A stretch of DNA of 64,000 bases from an uncultured Acidobacteriota bacterium (GCA_963745875.1 CAVUZL010000008.1:20427-84426), one strand, 5' to 3'; positions 18,480-46,249 are shown, counted from the stretch's first letter. Notes: generated by a model not told the origin, from the sequence alone. A program made the numbers and translations.

Positions 18480-21400
18480 TCAAACGGTCACCAACATTTT
18501 CGCGTCGCGAAAATCCGGGGTGTCGAACCCCTCCGTGCACGACGTCACGAGTGCGGCCAGGTCCGCCTGAGCACCGGCGGGCCGTCCGACCTGCGCCGCA
18601 AACACTGCACGCGTCGTCGCCGCACGGAGTTCGAAGCCCCGCGCTTGCTGGTCTCGTGCGAGCAACACCGCGGTCGTCAAGAGATCGTCGATCGCGTCGG
18701 CCTCACTTGGCTCCGACGTTCCCTTCTGGATCCGAAGGTCAGCCGTCATCCTCAGAATCTCGGCCAGGTAGCAGCATTCGCCGGTCCGTTCGGCGACGCT
18801 TCGAGCGTCGCCGAGCGTTGCCAACGCCGCGTCGAGATGTCCCTGACGAGCCTGCGCGTCGGCAAGCAGCGCGAGAAAATTCGGCCGCACCAGGCTGATG
18901 CCGATGACGTCGGTGAACGCGATCGCCTGCCGGATCATCGCCTCCCCCTCTTCAGCGGCACCGGTCTGCGACAGCGCCCACCCGCGGAGGACTCGCGACC
19001 AGGCGCCGAGGTGCGGATACCCATATTGCTCGATCAGGCCGAGACTTTCGGCGGTCACACTGAGCACACCCTGGGGATCGCGCGCGTGCTGGCGTATCCA
19101 CGCCTCGAAGAACAACGCGAATGCCAGCATCAGCGGGTGATTCAGCTGCCGCGCTCGCGCAACGGTCGCGTCGATGCGGGCGCGCGCGCGATCGGGCCAG
19201 CCCAGCATCCACTCGACGCGCGCGCCCTGAAATCCGCATCCGAGACCGGCGTCGAACCCGGTCATGATCATGAAGCTGGCATGAAGTGCCGGATCGTAGA
19301 AGCTGCTGCCGCGATCGAGATGATGCAGCGCTTCAGCGAGTCCGCGGCCGAGGTGACCATGCAGCGTGCCGTACGACCACTCGGTCCAGATCGACATCAC
19401 CGGGTGACCGATCCGTTCCGACATCGACTGCATCTGATCGACGGATTGCTCCGTTCGACTCAGTTCGGCGCGCATCAAGTGAAACGCTCCGGTGCCGGTA
19501 ACGATGCCGAACAGATCGGGGTTTTCGCCGAGCTGATCGCACAGTACGTGCACACGGCGGAACGTCTCTTCGAGCTCAGGCGCCGCGTAACCGAGAACGT
19601 TCTGCGCCGGTAGCGCGATCGCCATCAGGTGCTGCAACTCACGCGGGATGCGTTCGGGTGTGGCCGGCAGCGACTGCAGCATCTCCATGCCACGGCGGGC
19701 CAGCGTCAGCGCTTCGCGGTCGGCAAACACCTGGCGCGCGCGTTCGGAGGCGATCAGGAAAAACTCGGCAGCTCGGGAAAAATCTCGAGCGCCTTCGAAC
19801 AGATACGCGAGTTCAGACGCCCGCGCATTCACCTGATCGCCATGAGCTGCGACGATCGCGGCTGCGACGGCAGCGCTCAGCGAGCCGCGGCGGCTCGGAC
19901 CGAGCGCCGTGTAGAGTGCGTTCTGGTAGAGCACGTGGACGAAACGGTAGCGAACCGACAGCGACCGATCGGGCAGCTCGACCTCGCGAACCGGCTGCAT
20001 CAGCCCATGCCGCTGGCAGAGCAGATCGAGCCGGTCCTCGACGTCAGCCTGATCGAGCGACAGCGCGCGCGACACGACGACCGAATCGAATTCGTAACCC
20101 TGAACCGCGCCAGCCGTCACCAGGCGACGATCGTTGTCCTCGAGACGGCCAATCTTCAGGTCGATCATGCTTCTGATCGAGGCCGGCATGTCGCGGTCGA
20201 TTTCCGATTCGGCCCGGGTGAGCCGCCACGCGCCGCCTTCCTCGCGAATCACCTGACGGTCGCGCAGGCTCCGCACCAGATCGCCCATGAACAGTGGATT
20301 GCCCTCGGTCCGGGCATGCACCCGCTTCGCGAACGACGCCGGCAACTGATGCCCTGGGAACTCGAGCCCCAGGTAGCGCTCGACGTCGGCTTCGCTCAGG
20401 AACCCGACATGCACGTCGCGACACAGACCGCGGCCTTCGAGCTCCAGCTTCAACGCCAGGAACGGATGACGGGCCAGTGTGAGATCCGTGGGCCGATAGG
20501 TGGCGACTACCAGCAAACGCATCGCGCCAAGCCGCGCTCCGAGATAGGCCAGCAGATCGACGGTCGACCCGTCAGCCCACTGCAAGTCGTCGAAAAACAG
20601 TACCAGCGGCCGGTGGCGTGACACTTCTTCCAGCAGCGCGACCACCTCGCGCTTCATCCACTCCTGCGATCCAGCGCGGTTGACGACGAGTGCCCGGGCC
20701 TCGGCCGACTCGTCTCCGGCCATCGGCGCGATCTGCGCGTACCAGGTCGGCGCGACGGTTTTCATCACCCGGGCGAGCGGCTGGCCGGTTTCGTCGCGCA
20801 TGGAATCGAGCGCCTCGAGCCATGGCAGATACGCTCCCGCTCCGGCTTGCCGCTCCGAGCATCGACCTCGCGCCACGAGGCAGCGGCGTCCCGACGAGAC
20901 CAGGTCCTGAATAAAATCTTCCGCCAGCGTCGTCTTGCCGATGCCTGGCTCACCGGACAAGGCGACGATGGCGCCCGCGCCACTGTCGGCGGCATCGAAC
21001 GCGTCGGCCAGAAGTGTCCGGGCGTTCTCGCGGCCGACGATATGGCGGACCGGCAATGGCGATGGACGGCGAATCGCGGCGGTTGCGCCACCGAACGCGG
21101 CGGCGAGCGCGCGATCGACGGCATCCGCGTCGGGACGGGCCCGCGGATCGCGCTCGAGCATCTGCAGAATCAGCGCATCGATCGACGCGGAGAGCTGTGG
21201 CGCGAATCGCGACGGCGGCGGCGGCTCCTCCGACATCATGCGTGCAACGATGCTCACGCCGTCTCCGGTTTGGCCGGCAGCGGCGAACGGATGGCGCCCG
21301 GTCGCGAGCTCGTAGAACACGAGTCCGAGCGCAAAGATGTCGGACGCGCTGTCCACGGCGATCCCGCGGGCTTGCTCGGGAGACATGTAAGCCACCGTCC

Positions 21401-21956
21401 CCACCACGAGCCCGCCGGGTCCCGTGATCGAGGCCGGACCGGCCTGAGTCAGCGTCGAGGCCTCGGAATCGATCTCCGGCTTGCTGGCGCGCGCGAGTCC
21501 AAAGTCCAGCACCTTGACGTATCCGTCGCCCCTCACCATGACGTTTTCCGGCTTGATATCGCGATGGACAATGCCCGCGGCGTGCGCCACGCCGAGTGCG
21601 CGGGCGACCTGCCGGCCGATATCGGCCCAGGTCTCGATGCCGGGAGTGGTGCGAAGAATGGCTCGGAGGGTGCGGCCCTCGATCATCTCCATCACGATAA
21701 ACGGGCCGGCGTCGCACTCGCCGAAGTCGAACACCGAAACGATGTTGGGATGGTTGAGAGCAGACGCGGCCTGGGCCTCGCGTGTGAAACGGTTGACGGC
21801 CGCTGGATCGCCCGCGGCGTCGGGATGGATCACTTTGATGGCGACATCACGCCCGAGCTTCCTGTCGCGCGCACGATAGACCTCTCCCATCCCGCCTGCG
21901 CCGAGCGTAGACAGAATTTCGTAGGAACCAAGACGAGCGCCAGCGGGCAGCGACAT
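18480..21956 (-). CDS. Ser/Thr protein kinase fused to an AAA/STAND NTPase and a TPR-like C-terminal region
   Basis: The ATG at 21956 ('MSLPAGARLGSYEIL') is the likely start. Kinase motifs are 'GAGGMGEVYRA', 'VAIKVI', 'HRDIKPENVMV', 'DFGLA' and 'YMSPEQ'. The P-loop 'LSGEPGIGKTTLAE' is followed by about 600 aa of helical repeats. Confidence 0.9.
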   Translation of the reverse strand: MSLPAGARLGSYEILSTLGAGGMGEVYRARDRKLGRDVAIKVIHPDAAGDPAAVNRFTREAQAASALNHPNIVSVFDFGECDAGPFIVMEMIEGRTLRAILRTTPGIETWADIGRQVARALGVAHAAGIVHRDIKPENVMVRGDGYVKVLDFGLARASKPEIDSEASTLTQAGPASITGPGGLVVGTVAYMSPEQARGIAVDSASDIFALGLVFYELATGRHPFAAAGQTGDGVSIVARMMSEEPPPPSRFAPQLSASIDALILQMLERDPRARPDADAVDRALAAAFGGATAAIRRPSPLPVRHIVGRENARTLLADAFDAADSGAGAIVALSGEPGIGKTTLAEDFIQDLVSSGRRCLVARGRCSERQAGAGAYLPWLEALDSMRDETGQPLARVMKTVAPTWYAQIAPMAGDESAEARALVVNRAGSQEWMKREVVALLEEVSRHRPLVLFFDDLQWADGSTVDLLAYLGARLGAMRLLVVATYRPTDLTLARHPFLALKLELEGRGLCRDVHVGFLSEADVERYLGLEFPGHQLPASFAKRVHARTEGNPLFMGDLVRSLRDRQVIREEGGAWRLTRAESEIDRDMPASIRSMIDLKIGRLEDNDRRLVTAGAVQGYEFDSVVVSRALSLDQADVEDRLDLLCQRHGLMQPVREVELPDRSLSVRYRFVHVLYQNALYTALGPSRRGSLSAAVAAAIVAAHGDQVNARASELAYLFEGARDFSRAAEFFLIASERARQVFADREALTLARRGMEMLQSLPATPERIPRELQHLMAIALPAQNVLGYAAPELEETFRRVHVLCDQLGENPDLFGIVTGTGAFHLMRAELSRTEQSVDQMQSMSERIGHPVMSIWTEWSYGTLHGHLGRGLAEALHHLDRGSSFYDPALHASFMIMTGFDAGLGCGFQGARVEWMLGWPDRARARIDATVARARQLNHPLMLAFALFFEAWIRQHARDPQGVLSVTAESLGLIEQYGYPHLGAWSRVLRGWALSQTGAAEEGEAMIRQAIAFTDVIGISLVRPNFLALLADAQARQGHLDAALATLGDARSVAERTGECCYLAEILRMTADLRIQKGTSEPSEADAIDDLLTTAVLLARDQQARGFELRAATTRAVFAAQVGRPAGAQADLAALVTSCTEGFDTPDFRDAKMLVTV

Positions 21957-22006
21957 GGAAAGGTTGCTGGCAATTATACCGGCGGCGGTTGAGCAGGGCT
22001 CGGGCC

Positions 22007-23590
22007 ATGGGTACGATTCGGTCGCTTCCTCATCGATTAGACACAACTGCGTCTGGGAAACAGCACTGGATTCCGCCGGCCGCGACGACTAGACTGACCG
22101 GCATTCCCGTGTCCGATCGCGATGTCTTCGACGCCATCATCCTCGGCGGTGGGCCGGCCGGCTCCTCCGCCGCGCGGCTGCTGAGCGCCTGGGGGCATTC
22201 AGTCCTGCTGCTCGACATGCCCGGCGCCCCTTCGCGGGGGCTTGCCGAGTCGCTTCCGCCCAGCACGCAAAAGTTACTGGCGCAAATCGGCGTGCTCGAT
22301 GCCGTCGAGCAAGCGGGATTCTTTCGTGCGACCGGCAACACCGTCTGGTGGGCGTCGCGCGATCGCCGAACCGAATCGTTCGGCGCAGCGCGGCAGGCCG
22401 AGGGCTATCAGGTTCACCGCACGGAATTCGATCGTGTCCTTCGAGGCTGTGCGCGCGACGCCGGTGCCGAGGTGCGGACCGCGGCTCGGGTGCGCGACGT
22501 CCGATTGCTCGAGGATCAGCTCGCGATCGTGGCCTACGACGAAGACGGACGGCGCCAGTCAGCGTCGTGCCGTTTTGTGCTCGACTGCTCCGGCCGGACC
22601 GGCCTTGTCGGCCGTCGATTCCGCCGACTCGAAAGCGGCTACCGGACGTCGGCGTTCGTCGGCGTCTGGCACAGGCCGGACGGCTGGCCGCTCCCCGACG
22701 ACACCCACACCATCGTCGAAACCTACGACGAGGGGTGGATGTGGTCGGTGCCGACCTCGAAAACGACCAGACACGTCGGCGCGATGATCGATCGATCGTC
22801 GCCGACCGCGTCCGGCGGGCGCGGGCTCGAGCGCGTGTATCGCGCCGAAACGGCGAAGGCGACGAACCTCGCGGCTCTGCTCGAGCACGCGACGCTCGAG
22901 CGCGTCTGGACGTGCGACGCGTCGCTCTATGCGTCCATGCAGTACGCCGGGTCGCAGTTCCTGCTGGTGGGCGATGCCGGGTCGTTCATCGATCCGCTCT
23001 CGTCGTTCGGCGTCAAGAAGGCGCTGGCGTCGGCGTGGATCGGTGCGATTGCCGCCCACACGAGCCTGACCGATCCGGATCGGCACGACGTGGCCATGCG
23101 GTTCTTCTCGGACTGGGAGCGGGATGTCTACGCGAAGCACCTGAACCGCTCGCGTCAGTTCGCGCGCGACGCCTACGTGCGCCATCCGCATCCGTTCTGG
23201 GCGTCACGTGCGGCAGTCCACGGCGAGCCGGATCGCGAGGTTCACGAGAACGAATCGTGGCGCCCCGCCGTTCTGGCGGCGTTCGAACGCTTCAAGCAGG
23301 CGCCGTCGATTCACCTGGCGCTCGCGGACGAGGTCCGGTTTGAATTGCGCCCCGTGATCCGCGACCACGAAATCGTCCTGGAAGAGGCGCTGGTTGCGCC
23401 GGCGAATGAGGCGTTGCGGTTTCTGGGCAACGTCGACCTGGTCAAGCTGGCCGGCATCGCCTGCCGTCATACCGATGTTCCTGACGTGTTCGAGGATTAC
23501 TGCCGGACGTGTGCAGCCGTGCCGCTGCCAAACGTGATGTCCGGACTGTCACTGCTGGTCGCCAGAGGGATTCTCCATGAGCGAGCGTAA
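22007..23590 (+). CDS. qhpG: FAD-dependent monooxygenase QhpG (quinohemoprotein amine dehydrogenase maturation); start uncertain (ATG 22007 or GTG 22109)
   Basis: The dinucleotide-binding motif 'DAIILGGGPAGSSAARLL' lies close to the N-terminus, and the fold is flavoprotein-hydroxylase-like. The stop overlaps the qhpA start. The assignment rests on operon context with qhpADCBFE. Confidence 0.8.
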   Translation: MGTIRSLPHRLDTTASGKQHWIPPAATTRLTGIPVSDRDVFDAIILGGGPAGSSAARLLSAWGHSVLLLDMPGAPSRGLAESLPPSTQKLLAQIGVLDAVEQAGFFRATGNTVWWASRDRRTESFGAARQAEGYQVHRTEFDRVLRGCARDAGAEVRTAARVRDVRLLEDQLAIVAYDEDGRRQSASCRFVLDCSGRTGLVGRRFRRLESGYRTSAFVGVWHRPDGWPLPDDTHTIVETYDEGWMWSVPTSKTTRHVGAMIDRSSPTASGGRGLERVYRAETAKATNLAALLEHATLERVWTCDASLYASMQYAGSQFLLVGDAGSFIDPLSSFGVKKALASAWIGAIAAHTSLTDPDRHDVAMRFFSDWERDVYAKHLNRSRQFARDAYVRHPHPFWASRAAVHGEPDREVHENESWRPAVLAAFERFKQAPSIHLALADEVRFELRPVIRDHEIVLEEALVAPANEALRFLGNVDLVKLAGIACRHTDVPDVFEDYCRTCAAVPLPNVMSGLSLLVARGILHERA

Positions 23591-25361
23591 GACGATGGTC
23601 AGACGGCTCGGGACAGTCTGTTTCGTGGGCCTGGTGTGGTTATGTGCGCCGGCACAGGGACGGGCTCAGACGCCGGCGGAGGCTGCCAAGGACGAGGGCT
23701 TTCCGATCCAGAGCGATCTTGTGCGATCCAAGTGCGGCTCCTGCCACCGCAGCGACGACAAAGGCCGGATGTCGCGCATCTCGTACCGGCGCGCGACGCC
23801 CGAGAACTGGGAACGAACCATCCGGCGGATGGTGACGCTCAACCACGCGGTGCTCGAGCCGGCCGACGCGCGCAACATTCTCAAGTACCTGTCGGACCAT
23901 CAGGGCCTCGCGCCTGAGGAAGATCGGCCGATCGCGTTCGATGCCGAACGCCGCACGATCGAGTACTCCTACACGGCCGATAAGGACACCGCCGATACCT
24001 GCGGTTCGTGCCACTCGATGGCGCGCGTGCTCAGCGAACGGCGCACCAAGGAAGAGTGGGAGCTGCTGGTCGCCATGCATCGCGGCTATTACCCGCTCGT
24101 GGACAACCAGCCGATGAACGGCGGTCAGGGATTCCGGCGCACGCGACCGATCTCGACCGAGCCGGACGCGGACGGCCATCCGCCGGACAATCGTCATCCG
24201 ATGGACAAGGCGCTGGCGCACATCGAGAAAACACTCCCGCTGATGACTCCGGAGTGGTCAGCGTGGGCGGCCGCGATGCAACCGCCGAAGCTGGCGGGGC
24301 GCTGGGCGATTAGCGGATCGCAGAATGGCCGCGGACCGATTTACGGCCAGTTCACCATCGCCGCAGATCCTGGCGCGCCCGACAGCTTCACCACCACCAT
24401 CAGATACGTCGTCGCGCGCACCGGCGAAACAGTGACCCGCACCGGCAAGGGCCTGGTCTACACAGGCTACCAGTGGCGCGGGCGCGGGTCGGCGGGGAGC
24501 GGCCCCTCGACCGGCCCAGGGTCGTCCCGATCCGAATCGAAAGACGATGCTTGGCGCGAGGTGATGTCGGTCGAGCGCGACTGGAGCGAAATGTCGGGAC
24601 GCTGGTTTACCGGCGCCTACGACGAGACCGGCATCGACGTGAAGCTGACGCGCCTGAGCAACGACCCGATCGTCCTCGGCGCCAGCGTGACGGCGCTGAA
24701 GACCGGCGCTTCGGGTCAGGTGGTGCGAATCTTCGGCGCGAATCTGCCGACGGCAGCGCGTCCCGAGGACATCGGCCTCGGTCCCGGCGTGACGATCGCG
24801 CGGGTGGTCACAGCGCTGCCTGATGAAACGACTGTCGAGGTGAACGTCGCCGCCACGGCGCCGATCGGCGCCCGCGATCTCTCGGTCGGCGGCACCAGGA
24901 AGGCCGCGGCGCTGGTCGTGTACGACAAGATCGACGGCATCAAAGTCCTCCCGCAAGCCGGCATGGCGCGCGTCGGCGGCAACGTCTTTCCGAAGCAGCT
25001 GCAGCAGTTCGAGGCGGTCGGGATCAACAACGGTCCGGACGGCAAGCCGGATACGGCTGACGATCTGAATCTCGGCCTGGTCACGGTGAAGTGGTCGGTC
25101 GAGGAGTACACCGCCACGTTCGGAGACGATGATGCGCAGTTTGTGGGGACGGTGGACGCCAACGGTCTGTTCACACCGAACGTGGACGGACCGAATCCGA
25201 AACGCAGCGGCAATCGCAACAACATCGGTGACGTCTGGGTGGTCGCCGAGCTGACCAGTCCGGACGCGCGACTGACTTCACGGCCGTTGCGCGCGCGCGC
25301 GCAACTGCTGGTGACGGTTCCGATTTACATGGCGTGGTTCGAGAGCGAGAGTGGCAAATGA
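23577..25361 (+). CDS. qhpA: Quinohemoprotein amine dehydrogenase alpha subunit (di-haem c)
   Basis: 594 aa with the signal peptide 'VCFVGLVWLCAPAQGRAQT'. It has two CxxCH motifs ('SKCGSCHRSDD', 'DTCGSCHSMAR') in the N-terminal third, then Ig-like beta domains. It is ATGA-coupled to qhpD. Confidence 0.9.
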   Translation: MSERKTMVRRLGTVCFVGLVWLCAPAQGRAQTPAEAAKDEGFPIQSDLVRSKCGSCHRSDDKGRMSRISYRRATPENWERTIRRMVTLNHAVLEPADARNILKYLSDHQGLAPEEDRPIAFDAERRTIEYSYTADKDTADTCGSCHSMARVLSERRTKEEWELLVAMHRGYYPLVDNQPMNGGQGFRRTRPISTEPDADGHPPDNRHPMDKALAHIEKTLPLMTPEWSAWAAAMQPPKLAGRWAISGSQNGRGPIYGQFTIAADPGAPDSFTTTIRYVVARTGETVTRTGKGLVYTGYQWRGRGSAGSGPSTGPGSSRSESKDDAWREVMSVERDWSEMSGRWFTGAYDETGIDVKLTRLSNDPIVLGASVTALKTGASGQVVRIFGANLPTAARPEDIGLGPGVTIARVVTALPDETTVEVNVAATAPIGARDLSVGGTRKAAALVVYDKIDGIKVLPQAGMARVGGNVFPKQLQQFEAVGINNGPDGKPDTADDLNLGLVTVKWSVEEYTATFGDDDAQFVGTVDANGLFTPNVDGPNPKRSGNRNNIGDVWVVAELTSPDARLTSRPLRARAQLLVTVPIYMAWFESESGK

Positions 25362-26828
25362 GCACATGGGTCGCGCGTGAACATCACCGCTTCGAGGCCG
25401 CCGGCAAACCGTTCGTGTATCTGGTGCCGAGCGCCGCGATTTTCGCGCTCGATGACGCCGCCGATTCCGTCCTGCGAACGCTGTCGGCGAGGCCGTACAC
25501 GCGCGAGGAATTGTCGATCGCGCTCGGCGAGGACCTGAGCGCGGCTTCATCCTTGACTGCCGGCGCGCTCGACGCGGCAATCGCGGAGCTGGCGCGCGTG
25601 CAGGCGATCGGTCCAGCTGCCGTCCCGGCACCGCCAACGCCCAAGGTGATTCCGCTCACGCCTTTCCCGTTGACCACAATGGTGCTGAACGTCACCAATC
25701 AGTGCAATCTGAGCTGCACCTACTGCTACGAGTACGGCGAGGACAAGATTGTCGATACGGAAAACGGCAAGCAGCCGAAGTTCATGAGTGAGCAGACCGC
25801 GCGAGAGAGCGTGGACTTCATGTTGAAGGAGTCGGGCGCCAACCGGCTCGCGCACATCACCTTCTTCGGCGGCGAGACGCTTTTGAACTTCCCGGTGCTG
25901 CAGAAGACGATCACCTACGCACGTCAGCGGGCGGCCGAGGTCGGCAAGGACGTCGACTTCAGCCTGACCACCAACGCGACGCTGCTCAGACCCGAGATCA
26001 TCGAGTTCCTCGCCGAAGAACGCGTCGGCGTCACGATTTCGATCGACGGTCCGAAGGAAGTTCAGGACAAGTTCCGTGTCTTCAACAACGGAACCGGCAG
26101 CTACGACATCGTCGCTCCCAAGATCAAGGAGCTGATTCGCCGCCATCGCAGTCGCCCGATCGGCGCCCGCGTCACCCTGACCTCTGGAAAGATGGACGTC
26201 AAGCGGATCTATCAGCACCTCACCGAAGAGATCGGCTTCTGGGAAGTCGGGTTCGCGCCGGTCACGACCTCGCCGCAGCGCGCGCACGCGATTTCGGAGG
26301 GCTGGCTACGACGAGATGCTCGGTCAGTTCCGCGACCTTGCGTTCGAGTTTCTCGAAACCACCGTCGCCGGCCGTCACCACGGGTTCTCGAACGTGAAGG
26401 AAACGCTCGAGGAGCTGCACAAGGGAGTCAGCAAGGCGTTCCCGTGCGGGGCCGGCCTCGGATTGCTTGGCGTGGCGACCGACGGCGACGTCGCGCTCTG
26501 TCATCGCTTCGCTGGATCCGATTCGCACCGGCTCGGCACCGTCACGTCGGGCATCGATCGCGAAGCGCAACAGGCATTTCTCGCGGAGCACCACGTCGCC
26601 AACAAGACCGACTGCCGCTCCTGCTGGGCGCGGCCGCTCTGTTCGGGCGGCTGCTATCACGAGGCGCACACGCGCTACGGCGATACCACCCACGCCAACC
26701 TGCACTACTGCAACTGGATTCGCGGCTGGACCGACGTCTGTCTCCAGGTCTACGGAGAATTGGCGGCGCGCAATCCAGCGTTTCTCGCTCAGTTCGATCA
26801 CGAAGATACGAAGGAGCTCGTGTCATGA
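25358..26828 (+). CDS. qhpD: Radical SAM/SPASM maturase QhpD (forms the thioether crosslinks in QhpC); frame broken near 26300
   Basis: The radical SAM motif is 'NQCNLSCTYCYEYG'. The N-terminal part ends at 'SPQRAHAISEG' and the +1 frame continues 'GYDEMLGQFRDLAFEF...', carrying the SPASM cysteines 'CRSCWARPLCSGGCYHEA' (ORF 26316..26828). The 621-aa tracked ORF 25334..27199 is an artefactual fusion with qhpC. Confidence 0.9.
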
Positions 26829-27199
26829 ACCATCTGAAGGCGATCAACACGAAAGCGGTCCGCGTCGAAGAGGCGACACTTCCACACGCTCCGGGCGGCC
26901 ACGAGTCAGGCGAAGGTGCCGGCGATCAGGACGTCGTCGCGCTGCAGCGCACCGGGTTGCCGCAGCTGCCGCATTTTCCGGTCGGCTGCTCGCTGGTCTT
27001 CTCTCCGGGCTGGGAAGCGGATCACACCGGCGGCACCGCTGGGTTGTGCCAGCCGGTCGAGCGCGATCTGTTCGACTGCCATATCGGGTGTTACTGGCCG
27101 GCGCAGGTACCGGACCAGCTGAATCACGCGCCGGACTGGACCGCCAAGTGTGCCGCTGCCCAGAAAGACTGGCGCAAGATCGATCTCATCTTCCCGTAG
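26825..27199 (+). CDS. qhpC: Quinohemoprotein amine dehydrogenase gamma-subunit precursor (CTQ and thioether-crosslinked peptide)
   Basis: 124 aa, with an ATG overlapping the qhpD stop. The core is 'PHFPVGCSLVFSPGWEADHTGGTAGLCQPVERDLFDCHIGCYWPAQVPDQLN...DWRKIDLIFP'. Its Cys, Glu, Asp and Trp spacing equals that recalled for Paracoccus QhpC (C7-E16, C27-D33, C37/W43, C41-D49). Confidence 0.9.
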   Translation: MNHLKAINTKAVRVEEATLPHAPGGHESGEGAGDQDVVALQRTGLPQLPHFPVGCSLVFSPGWEADHTGGTAGLCQPVERDLFDCHIGCYWPAQVPDQLNHAPDWTAKCAAAQKDWRKIDLIFP

Positions 27200-27209
27200 C
27201 GAGGACGGT

Positions 27210-28358
27210 ATGCACTCGACAACCTCTGGCGTGGCGCGCGCGTCCCGGGCGCGGGAACGGTTCCTGGCCGTCGTGCTCTGCGTGGCCGGTCTCGCTCTCG
27301 TGGCAGGTCGCGCGCAGGTGTACTCGGCGGAAAAGCCCAGGGTCTCGGCCGGCAACGGCACGCTGATCATCGGGTCGTATCCGAAGCAGTACTGGATCAT
27401 CGACGAGGCCACCGAGAAGGTGGTCGGGTCGATTCCGTATCAGTCCGGGATTCCCCGCCGGACCACGCTGTCACGCGACCGGAAACGGTTCTACACGGTC
27501 GAAGCCGCGATGGAGAAGATCGAGATCATCGACCTCGCCTCGCGCAAGACCATCGACACCTTCACGCTGAGCGAGGGCAACAAGAAGGTCCGCATCCGCA
27601 GCCTCGAGCCCGATCCGCAGCACCGTTTCCTGGTGATGGTGATCGCGCCGGCCACCAAGCTGATCGACCGTTTCGAGATCGGCACGCCGTCGCTGATTCA
27701 GTACGACCTCAAGGATCACAAGATTGTCCGGACCATTCCGTGGCCGAACGGCGAAGAGCGTCAGAACGCCAATATCCTGTTCTCGCCTGATGGCGGGCTG
27801 ATGTACCTGTTCAGCGACCAGGACGTGCTGATCTACGAGACCAAGGCGTTCACCCAGGTGGACAAGTGGGAACTGTCGCGGCCAATCGAAGAGGGATTCG
27901 GCCGCCTCGAGTTCGGATCGCGCGACGTCGTGAACGACGAGCCGGGCTTCTACACGACGCTGTTCAACGTGTCCGATCCAGTTCAGCACCGCCGCATGAT
28001 GGGTGTGGGCCGCGTCAACCTCGCCGCCAAGAGCGTGGACTTCTACACGCTGGGGCCATCGAACGGCGTCAGCTTTACGATGGCACCTGGCCGTAAGGTC
28101 GCCTACGGGCTGTTCGAGGATATCGGCCGCTACGAGTTCTGGAAATTCGACCTCGAGCACCACACCTTCGCCGGCCGCACCGAGTTCAAGGGGCGGCCGC
28201 GCATGGGCCTCAAGACCAGTTCGAACGGCAAGGTGCTCTACATCTTCGTCGCCGGCAACACGATCGACCTGTACGACGCGGAGACGTATCAATACCTGCG
28301 GACGATCACGATCGAGGGCGACATGACGACCGACCTGTTCGTCATGCCGCCCGCATGA
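27210..28358 (+). CDS. qhpB: Quinohemoprotein amine dehydrogenase beta subunit (beta-propeller)
   Basis: ATG at 27210 follows GAGGACGG. The signal peptide is 'FLAVVLCVAGLALVAGRAQV'. Repeated beta-blade-like segments follow. It sits directly after qhpC, as in known qhp operons. Confidence 0.85.
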   Translation: MHSTTSGVARASRARERFLAVVLCVAGLALVAGRAQVYSAEKPRVSAGNGTLIIGSYPKQYWIIDEATEKVVGSIPYQSGIPRRTTLSRDRKRFYTVEAAMEKIEIIDLASRKTIDTFTLSEGNKKVRIRSLEPDPQHRFLVMVIAPATKLIDRFEIGTPSLIQYDLKDHKIVRTIPWPNGEERQNANILFSPDGGLMYLFSDQDVLIYETKAFTQVDKWELSRPIEEGFGRLEFGSRDVVNDEPGFYTTLFNVSDPVQHRRMMGVGRVNLAAKSVDFYTLGPSNGVSFTMAPGRKVAYGLFEDIGRYEFWKFDLEHHTFAGRTEFKGRPRMGLKTSSNGKVLYIFVAGNTIDLYDAETYQYLRTITIEGDMTTDLFVMPPA

Positions 28359-30017
28359 TCGATCGCGATCTGCGCCGGGCGCTTGCCTTCATCGTTCCCT
28401 ACTGGCGGCGCCTCGTGCTGGTGCTGCTGCTCAGCGCGCTCAGCACCGCGCTCTCGCTCTACCTGCCGCTGCTCTCGCGCGACTTCTTCGATCACGCGCT
28501 GATCGGCCGGGACCTGCGCACGCTGATCCGCGTCGCCGCTGCTGTTCACCGGCATCGGCGCCGCCAGCTTCGCCGTCAACGTGCTGAGCGGACTGCGCTA
28601 CACGCGGGTCTCAGCCGACATCCTGTTCGACATGCGGCTGCAGATGTACCGCCACCTGCAGCAGTTGTCGCCGCGGTTCTACGCCAGGACGCGCCTTGGC
28701 GACGTGATGTCGCGCATCAACAACGACATCGGCGAGATTCAGCGCATCGCTGCGGAAACCGCACTGGCCTGGGTCGGCAATGTGTTGTTCCTGTGCGGAA
28801 CCACCGCGATGCTGGCGTGGCTGGACATGCGGCTGTTCCTGGTGACAATCGCCACGGCGCCGCTCGGGATCTGGCTGCTGGCGCGATATCGCACAAAACT
28901 CGAGGCCGAGATCGCCACGCTGCGTCAGCGGAGCGCGGACATCGGCAGCTTTCTGATCGAAACGCTCCAGGCGGTCAAGCTGGTGGTTGCGTCGAATGCG
29001 CAGGAACGCGAAGTCGCGAGATTCCACGAGCGTAACTCGTCCTTCGTCAGGGCGCTGATGTCGATGCAGCGGTTGACCTACTTGTCCGGCGGCTTGCCCG
29101 GCCTCGTCCTGTCCGCCGGCACGGGTCTGGTGTTCGTCTACGGCGGCTACCGCGTGATCCGCGGCGAGATCACGGTCGGCACGTTCGTCGCGTTCATGGC
29201 GTACCAGATGCGTTTCCTCCCGCCACTGCAGGCGCTGATGGGGATGTACGCCAATCTGGCGACCGTGCGCGTGTCGTTGCGGCGCGTGTCGCAGATTCTC
29301 GACGAGCCGGTCGAAATTCAGGAGTCGGTCGCGGCGGTGGCGCTGCCGTACGTCCGCGGGGACGTTGCGTTCGAGAACGTGACGCTTTCGTTCGATCGCG
29401 GCGCACCGGCGCTTCAGGATGTGTCGTTCAGCGTCCGCGCCGGCGAGGTGCTGGCGATTGTCGGCCGCAGCGGCAGCGGCAAATCGACGATCGCTGACCT
29501 GCTGCTCCGCCTGCTCGATCCGGATCGCGGCGCCGTACGCATCGACGGCCACGACCTCCGCGGCGTCCGGCTCGCCGATCTGCGGCGTCACGTCGCGCTG
29601 GTCGAACAGGAACCGTGCATGCTGCACGCGACCATCGCCGAGAACATCCGCTACGCGCGGCCGGATGCCGGCGACGCCGATGTCGCCGCCGCCGCGCACA
29701 TGGCCGCCCTCGACGACTTCATCGCGCGCCTGCCCGACAAGCTCGCGACGGTGGTCGGCGAGCGCGGCATGGCGCTGTCCGCAGGCGAACGTCAGCGCAT
29801 CGCGGTCGCCCGGGCCTTCCTGGCCGACCCGTCGATCCTGATTCTCGACGAGCCGAGCGCGGCCCTCGATCCCGACTCCGAACGACAAGTCGCTGAAGGC
29901 TACGAAGCGGTGATGCGCGGACGCACCACCATCGTCATCACCCATCGTCTCGAGCTGGCGCGCCGTGCGGACCGCGTGCTCGAGATGGACGAGGCACGGC
30001 TGCTCCATGGCGCTTGA
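28355..30017 (+). CDS. qhpF: ABC transporter (fused permease and ATPase) QhpF; frame broken near 28539
   Basis: The N-terminus 'MIDRDLRRALAFIVPYWRRLVLVLLLSAL...LIRVA' continues in the +1 frame as 'LLFTGIGAASFAVNVLSGLRYTRVSADILFDMR'. Walker A is 'GRSGSGKST', the ABC signature is 'LSAGERQR' and Walker B is 'ILILDEP'. Confidence 0.85.
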
Positions 30018-30172
30018 CGTTTTGGGTCCTTGGGGCCTGGCGCCTGGTTCTTGGTCCGTCCATGGTCCGATGTCCTCAGTCCGAATCCGACGTCGCGGCG
30101 AGACAAGGACGACGGACCAAGGACTAAGCACGGACCAAGAACGAAGGCCCAAGAACTAAGGACGGGCGACGA
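30018..30172. repeat. Heptad-periodic imperfect palindrome (TGGTCC-type left arm, GGACCAA-type right arm)
   Basis: It fills the qhpF-qhpE gap. The left arm is built from units such as ttggggcc/tggcgcc/ttggtcc/gatgtcc/tcagtcc and the right arm from aaggac/ggaccaa/gaacgaa/gaactaa. gttcttggtccgt (30048-30060) is exactly complementary to acggaccaagaac (30131-30143). Confidence 0.8.
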
Positions 30173-30184
30173 TACCCTATCAAT

Positions 30185-30895
30185 ATGACATCGTCCCCGA
30201 CCGGCCGCGGCGTCCGGATCGCCGTGATCGACAGCGGCGTGCATGCTGCGCATCCGCACGTCGGTGGGGTGGCGGGAGGCATCGCGATCGTCGAGGACGG
30301 CCGTGAGCACGACGACTATGTCGATCGACTGGGCCACGGCACCGCCGTGGTTGCGGCGATCAAAGAAAAGGCGCCCGACGCTGAGATCTACGCGGTCCGG
30401 GTTTTCGATCGGTCGCTGTCAACACGGTTGGCCACGCTGATCGCCGCGATCGACTGGTCTGCGCGTCACGGCATGCACCTCGTCAACCTGAGCCTGGGAA
30501 CGTCGCGGGCGGAGCACGAATCTGCGCTGCTCGCTGCCGTGCAGCGCGCTGCGGCGAGCGGAACCGTAATCGTCGCTGCCGCGGAGGACGATGGTGTGCG
30601 GTGGTTGCCGGGCAGTCTGCCGGGTGTGATTGCGGTGAGAATGGACGCGACTTGTCCGCGGCACGAATATCGCGTCAAGGAAATCGCCGGGGGCACGGTG
30701 TTTCAGGCGTCCCCGTTTCCGCGCGAGATTCCCGGTGTGTCGCCGGAGCGAAACCTTAATGGCGTCAGCTTCGCGGTGGCGAACATGACCGGCTTTGCGG
30801 CCCGGGTCCGTGAAAACGCGGCTGACGGATCGATCGACGAAATCGTCCGACTGCTACTCGGTGGTCATCAACGCGCCGACGCGTTGCGGAGGTAG
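30185..30895 (+). CDS. qhpE: Subtilisin-like serine peptidase QhpE (removes the QhpC leader)
   Basis: 236 aa with the S8 triad context 'IAVIDSGV' (Asp), 'LGHGTAV' (His) and 'NGVSFAVANMTG' (Ser). The small size and the position in the qhp cluster fit QhpE. Confidence 0.85.
   Translation: MTSSPTGRGVRIAVIDSGVHAAHPHVGGVAGGIAIVEDGREHDDYVDRLGHGTAVVAAIKEKAPDAEIYAVRVFDRSLSTRLATLIAAIDWSARHGMHLVNLSLGTSRAEHESALLAAVQRAAASGTVIVAAAEDDGVRWLPGSLPGVIAVRMDATCPRHEYRVKEIAGGTVFQASPFPREIPGVSPERNLNGVSFAVANMTGFAARVRENAADGSIDEIVRLLLGGHQRADALRR

Positions 30896-41722: not shown

Positions 41723-46249
<4,527 letters not shown>

Follow-up and report, generated by a model that had tools for sequence, protein, structure and literature searches.

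The closest described counterparts of the genes treated here are the qhpADCBEFGR operons of Paracoccus denitrificans and Pseudomonas putida (structures 1JJU, 1JMX, and 7CTQ), which encode quinohemoprotein amine dehydrogenase (QHNDH). Operons of this kind occur in more than 1300 species, and their gene order and strands vary (Oozeki et al.). Here we analyze a qhp locus within a 64,000-nucleotide stretch of DNA from an uncultured Acidobacteriota bacterium (GCA_963745875.1, CAVUZL010000008.1:20427-84426; hereafter the window). Seven co-directional open reading frames (ORFs) on the + strand (21989–30895, with the qhp genes themselves at 22109–30895) are arranged as qhpG-A-D-C-B-F-E. This is very probably a lineage-typical qhp operon of the order Vicinamibacterales, specifying a periplasmic QHNDH, in which two breaks of the reading frame are consensus errors.

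The window holds the same seven components as the Paracoccus and Pseudomonas operons and has the A-D-C-B core in common with them. Shared features of the proteins are the cross-link and cysteine tryptophylquinone (CTQ) residues of the gamma subunit, two CXXCH haem sites, the cysteines of the radical S-adenosylmethionine (SAM)/SPASM maturase, the subtilisin triad, and the leader motifs. The window differs in that qhpG comes first and is co-directional with the other genes, qhpF lies ahead of qhpE, and an AraC-type QhpR is absent. Its QhpA is approximately 30 per cent identical to the Paracoccus and Pseudomonas proteins and approximately 100 aa longer, its QhpB is 17 per cent identical to theirs, the gamma-subunit leader is approximately 48 instead of 28 aa long, and the gamma subunit has a Tyr for Trp42 and an additional Cys61. 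In the QhpA phylogeny, a long branch lies between the window clade and Paracoccus and Cupriavidus.

Plasmid pPAN2 of Paracoccus pantotrophus (NZ_CP044425) has the order G(-) A D C B E F R(-). It resembles the window in its peaA-peaB-qhpC-peaD series followed by peptidase and ATP-binding cassette (ABC) exporter genes, and in a QhpG-like flavoprotein gene upstream of qhpA, but has qhpG on the opposite strand, E before F, and genes for an AraC regulator and an aldehyde dehydrogenase after the cluster. In Cupriavidus basilensis pRK1-2 (NZ_CP062806), the order is F-E-G, aldehyde dehydrogenase(-), A-D-C-B. There, accessory genes are likewise upstream of qhpA and F precedes E, whereas the F-E-G order, the divergent aldehyde dehydrogenase gene between G and A, and a nearby sigma-54 regulator set the cluster apart. 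The closest proteobacterial relative that we found is on a megaplasmid of Novosphingobium sp. RL4 (NZ_CP141945; locus L082, 9001–17018), with the order A-D-C-B-x-F-E and identities to the window proteins of 41 per cent for QhpA, 52–59 per cent for QhpD, 54 per cent for QhpC, and 53 per cent for QhpE. By these identities, it is far closer to the window than the Paracoccus-type clusters are. It also shares the F-E order and the extra Cys in QhpC, but has no qhpG within 9 kb upstream and a B–F gap of approximately 1 kb. This RL4 stretch, which is of the Acidobacteriota type, is unannotated in the plasmid collection used.

A more distant likeness is to LodA and GoxA, whose CTQ cofactor is made with a QhpG-like flavoprotein, LodB or GoxB; the LodB and GoxB models match the window QhpG with 105 and 86 bits, respectively. 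Unlike QHNDH, LodA and GoxA are single-subunit oxidases without radical-SAM thioethers, a haem subunit, or an exported gamma peptide.

Gene content, order, and setting of the operon

In a search against NCBIfam profiles, each of the seven proteins matches a Qhp family or its expected class (Table 1). QhpA scores 470.6 bits against TIGR03908 (QH_alpha; cut-off 274) and matches 1JMX_A (E 6e-62) and 1JJU_A (E 1e-53) by sequence; both of its haem sites read CGSCH (C53–H57 and C142–H146). QhpC reaches 118 bits against NF037958 (QH_gamma; cut-off 50), and QhpE 173.5 bits against NF049966 (cut-off 165), with the subtilisin-type residues D16, H51, and S195 and the motifs IDSG, GHGT, and GVSFA. QhpD is matched by TIGR03906 (quino_hemo_SAM; cut-off 453) in two pieces, with 331 bits over model positions 2–295 in frame 2 and 232 bits over positions 298–462 in frame 0, and keeps the CNLSCTYC motif and the SPASM cysteines. 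No Qhp-specific profile exists for QhpF. Its frame 0 portion is MsbA-like (364 bits, model positions 74–547), its first 62 aa lie in frame 2, and it is 31 per cent identical (E 2e-50) to the ABC gene product of the Paracoccus cluster; its position is conserved in relatives.

Table 1. Features of the qhp locus and its upstream flank (positions counted from the first nucleotide of the window).
Feature	Coordinates	Strand	Description	Basis
Kinase gene	18480-22046	-	Ser/Thr kinase-AAA(STAND)-TPR, 1188 aa	Divergent from qhpG
Upstream element	22066..22096	+	CTGGATT-N17-TAGACTG	Contiguous conserved blocks in the six closest Vicinamibacterales loci
qhpG	22109..23590	+	Flavin adenine dinucleotide (FAD)-dependent monooxygenase, predicted to dihydroxylate Trp43 of QhpC	Best NCBIfam family QhpG NF049967
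qhpA	23577..25361	+	Di-haem c alpha subunit, N-terminal signal peptide	TIGR03908; 1JMX_A/1JJU_A matches
qhpD	25358..26828	+	Radical-SAM/SPASM maturase, predicted to form three Cys-to-Asp/Glu thioethers	TIGR03906 in two frames; one extra base
qhpC	26825..27199	+	Gamma precursor: ~48-aa leader, 76-aa core	NF037958
qhpB	27210..28358	+	Beta subunit, seven-bladed propeller, signal peptide	TIGR03907 match; predicted fold
qhpF	28355..30017	+	Fused transmembrane domain–nucleotide-binding domain ABC exporter, predicted for the processed gamma subunit	MsbA-like; one extra base (C at 28539)
qhpF-qhpE spacer	30018..30184		167 nt	Sole long gap of the operon (ORF coordinates)
qhpE	30185..30895	+	Subtilisin-like leader peptidase	NF049966; catalytic motifs

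Against its family, QhpG scores 233.5 bits, and it carries the motifs GGGPAG (for FAD) and GWMWSVP. A sequence search of the PDB retrieved flavin halogenases, including CmlS, and the QhpG structure 7CTQ, and in pairwise comparison the halogenases are closer (141 bits) than 7CTQ (52 bits). CmlS is also the nearest structural relative of QhpG according to the paper that describes the QhpG structure, which reports a conserved Trp-x-Trp as well. The position of the halogenase-type Lys appears to correspond to an Ala in the window protein. The placement of qhpG beside qhpA is conserved in relatives.

The sequence of QhpB yields 64.3 bits against TIGR03907 (QH_beta; E 1e-17, model positions 4–328 of 338), and in the PDB its first match is an unrelated propeller (1L0Q_A), with 1JMX_B second (E 0.0045). 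Because the sequence match to QHNDH beta subunits is weak, QhpB was placed by its fold. An AlphaFold model built with 41 orthologues as input (predicted local distance difference test [pLDDT] 86.9; predicted template modeling [pTM] score 0.81) has 1JJU_B (E 1e-19, TM score 0.72) and 1JMX_B (E 2e-17, TM score 0.73) as the top two of at least 500 PDB matches. QhpB is thus predicted to have the QHNDH beta propeller fold.

An earlier note on this DNA had proposed a complete and mostly translationally coupled system in a rearranged gene order. The family models, the matches to solved structures, and the predicted fold agree on the seven genes and their order on the + strand. Coupling is likewise favored by the junctions as read from the sequence: there is a 14-nt overlap between qhpG and qhpA, an ATGA overlap at each of the qhpA/qhpD, qhpD/qhpC, and qhpB/qhpF junctions, and a 10-nt gap with GAGGA inside it between qhpC and qhpB, leaving the spacer before qhpE as the exception. 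The system is complete as a set of genes, whereas qhpD and qhpF as sequenced are each split by one base. The order is rearranged with respect to the Paracoccus model but is the usual one in the Acidobacteriota lineage.

Specifically, when the seven window proteins were searched by tblastn against 79 related loci, 38 of these had all seven genes on a single strand as G-A-D-C-B-F-E, as did 33 of the 48 loci long enough to hold the whole set. The remaining loci are subsets in the same order, with the sole exception of L013 (A after D-C-B), and E precedes F in none of the 79. G-A-D-C-B-F-E is therefore the normal arrangement of the Acidobacteriota lineage and not a rearrangement peculiar to the window. 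The lineage also includes some reduced variants: two Vicinamibacterales metagenome-assembled genomes (MAGs; L018 and L074) lack a qhpD between qhpA and the qhpC-qhpB pair that comes straight after it, and in L055, L078, and L040 no qhpF separates qhpB from qhpE. Outside Acidobacteriota, a MAG labeled Actinomycetes (L079) has qhpG and a partial qhpA only, with 10 kb downstream devoid of D, C, B, F, and E, and a Longimicrobiales (Gemmatimonadota) locus (L065) has G-A-D-C-B-F, which hints at transfer or remnants beyond the phylum.

The earlier note had also judged the genomic setting not to be proteobacterial, and the QhpA relatives, synteny, and phylogeny bear this out: the host is a soil bacterium of the order Vicinamibacterales (Acidobacteriota). 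In the QhpA tree, the window sequence falls within a well-supported 22-member clade of Vicinamibacterales and unclassified Acidobacteriota MAGs, with Vicinamibacterales SMAG_U5226 (L002) as its sister. Synteny extends to the kinase, nucleosidase, and permease genes beside the operon, which are 85–96 per cent identical in SMAG_U5226 and in L021. The host genome (6.09 Mb in 18 contigs, 84 per cent completeness) has a single qhp copy.

A fifth cysteine in the gamma subunit

QhpC aligns without gaps to the gamma subunits 1JJU_C and 1JMX_G, and realignment kept every cross-link and CTQ residue (C7, E16, C27, D33, C37, C41, W43, and D49); all eight are invariant in 35 orthologues. In the assignment used here, Cys7–Glu16, Cys27–Asp33, and Cys41–Asp49 are the thioether pairs and Cys37–Trp43 is the CTQ pair. 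The numbering of PMC7876137 agrees for Cys37, Cys41, Trp43, Asp49, and Asp33; the Cys7–Glu16 and Cys27–Asp33 pairings were looked for in that paper and not found. Asp33 of the gamma subunit has been proposed as the catalytic base. The leader retains the N-terminal MxHL..N.KA motif and DVVAL ([DE]VVA[LM]), and has in addition an insert of variable length. Trp42 of the model gamma subunits is replaced by Tyr or Phe in the lineage.

Additionally, a fifth Cys (Cys61 of the mature peptide) and Asp67 are invariant in 35 QhpC sequences of the Acidobacteriota type (27149–27169 in the window, residues 109–115 of the precursor). Both residues are also present in Novosphingobium RL4, and the Cys is without counterpart in Paracoccus and Pseudomonas. 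Because the spacing of Cys61 and Asp67 (six residues) equals that of the Cys27–Asp33 thioether, it is conceivable that QhpD installs a fourth cross-link between them; alternatively, Cys61 could be a functional free thiol. An AlphaFold model of QhpC was unusable for a Cys61–Asp67 contact (mean pLDDT 38), with a helix at residues 105–118 predicted at low confidence only. That the lineage is a distinct, uncharacterized QHNDH sub-lineage whose gamma subunit bears a fourth modification is an unlikely proposition in our estimate. If true, the modification and the diverged beta subunit could alter the substrate range in abundant soil bacteria.

Frame breaks and alternative readings of the locus

As sequenced, qhpD and qhpF are not intact, and so the seven-gene set is not intact either. 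The frame shifts near 26300 in qhpD and near 28540 in qhpF, and in comparison with seven close relatives there is exactly one surplus base at each site (T at 26303, in GGC-T-GGC, and C at 28539). Both breaks are most likely indel errors in the consensus of a long-read MAG, because the genes are intact in relatives and environmental contigs, the sequence past the breaks appears to be under purifying selection, indels also afflict gltB, and the completeness of the assembly is low despite its few contigs.

Among Logan contigs of four metagenome runs on soil or mine samples (three studies), all those that span a site lack the extra base (three runs at qhpD and four at qhpF), and one such contig differs from the window by 2 mismatches in 281 nt; each run holds at most 29 per cent of the sampled words, and the soil and mine habitat labels are only suggestive. 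Past the break in qhpD, 35 of the 38 differences from SMAG_U5226 fall at codon position 3 and 2 of 175 residues are changed; past the break in qhpF, position 3 accounts for 129 of 180 differences. This pattern indicates strong purifying selection downstream of both breaks. As a control, part of gltB (43967–44509) was aligned with its counterparts in three congeneric short-read genomes. Over 0.55 kb the window has four single-base insertions and a single-base deletion, a local patch of consensus errors in an essential gene that is conserved elsewhere along its length. Within the genus, QhpD is intact in seven genomes and split only in the window genome and in one four-contig, 55 per cent complete assembly, at different sites.

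Two assemblies of the genus, G408 and G411, consist of 4 and 10 contigs with completeness of 55 and 66 per cent, respectively, and qhpD is split elsewhere in G408; the pattern looks like a general indel problem in long-read MAGs of the genus. Programmed frameshifting in qhpD and qhpF is ruled out, since slippery runs are lacking at the two sites and every relative reads through them in frame.

Several observations weigh against an ordinary operon with two consensus errors. QhpG falls below its curated cut-off (240 bits) and QhpB fails that of QH_beta (223.2 bits). The locus has no QhpR, which is part of the model operon and not of the enzyme, and a search for conserved neighbors or regulators across the 79 loci found no family in more than eight of them. 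A literature search for biochemical work on the QHNDH of this lineage found none. The extra bases lie outside long homopolymers. As the source sample cannot be equated with any of the metagenome runs, there is room for a real, strain-specific frameshift. Were both insertions real, the cluster would be inactivated in this strain, as a recently decayed pseudo-operon. This reading gains from the coincidence of two independent breaks of the same sign in one operon, from the presence of a single qhp copy in the genome, and from loss within the genus, where QhpD is not detected in 4 of 12 genomes. We nevertheless consider it improbable: with divergence past the breaks biased to position 3 and almost no amino-acid change, inactivation would have to be very recent, whereas near-identical environmental contigs are intact, gltB of the same assembly has five one-base indels in 0.55 kb, and the combination of few contigs with low completeness suggests indel errors.

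Another possibility is that the operon is functional but encodes a CTQ enzyme with a substrate or role unlike that of the primary-amine dehydrogenase of Paracoccus and Pseudomonas. The divergence of QhpA on its long branch, the distance of QhpB from the solved beta subunits and its score far under the family cut-off, the invariant extra Cys and the Tyr or Phe for Trp42 in QhpC, and a locus devoid of both an AraC regulator and an aldehyde dehydrogenase gene would all be compatible with such a variant. However, the gamma subunit retains every catalytic and cross-link residue, including the proposed base Asp33, all seven components are present, and the alpha, gamma, and E proteins score above their equivalog cut-offs. 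We therefore regard a change of function as very unlikely, less probable even than decay. The operon is real, ordinary, and typical of its lineage, and the practical lesson is to attribute both breaks to the assembly rather than to decay of the genes.

Upstream region, distribution, and biological meaning

The qhpG frame is open from 21989, with an ATG at 22007 and a GTG at 22109. Coordinates given in the earlier note were nearly right throughout, except that qhpG was started at 22007. The start is probably the GTG, because in relatives the sequence upstream of 22109 has a stop codon or is divergent, and because the conserved stretch before 22109 consists of DNA blocks without codon periodicity. 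The GTG start places the GxGxxG motif at residues 13–18 of QhpG, and relatives have a conserved GTG or TTG here. The conserved blocks just upstream (Table 1) may represent a promoter or operator of the operon. The copy of this element in the window is the only one in the whole 6.09-Mb genome, which rules it out as a regulon marker. A scan of the operon for sigma-70 consensus sequences and terminators returned nothing above shuffled controls, and it did not call the upstream element. The divergent kinase gene is full-length and syntenic in no relatives other than the nearest two (L002 and L021), and as a genus-level neighbor it is ruled out as a general qhp regulator.

The earlier note had expected the locus to broaden the known distribution of the system. 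This does not hold, as QHNDH or qhpA in Acidobacteria MAGs had already been reported in two metagenome studies (bioRxiv 10.1101/445817 and 10.1101/2021.04.09.439258), and public genomes contain at least 79 related loci, nearly all from Acidobacteriota. Among the 10 top-ranked of 378 papers, none was found that pairs QHNDH with Vicinamibacter, Luteitalea, Bryobacter, or Solibacter. In species-representative genomes, QhpA relatives are 66–92 per cent identical to the window protein in Vicinamibacterales and 55–58 per cent identical in Bryobacterales and Solibacteraceae; beyond Acidobacteriota there are one Longimicrobiales MAG and one MAG labeled Actinomycetes. Of 401 sampled Acidobacteriota genomes, 32 carry QhpA, the window's own included; with that genome excluded, 17 of 36 genomes from its order have QhpA, as against 14 of 364 in the rest of the phylum.

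For genes whose homology, motifs, and order are observed directly, we infer mechanism and substrate by analogy with the model systems. In the cytoplasm, QhpD would bind QhpC through its leader and install three Cys-to-Asp/Glu thioethers, QhpG would dihydroxylate Trp43, QhpE would remove the leader, and QhpF would export the cross-linked peptide. In the periplasm, the peptide would join the Sec-exported di-haem QhpA and the QhpB propeller, and CTQ would be completed there. The enzyme would then convert primary amines to aldehyde and ammonium, with electrons passing via the haems to a carrier in the periplasm.

The locus thus belongs to a known and widely distributed enzyme system, with QhpA present in roughly half of the genomes sampled from its order. 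Its version in this lineage is set apart by a divergent beta subunit, a longer and variable leader, and a cross-linked peptide with a fifth conserved Cys. In it, abundant soil Acidobacteriota would have a self-contained set of seven genes with which to draw nitrogen, carbon, or electrons from primary amines.

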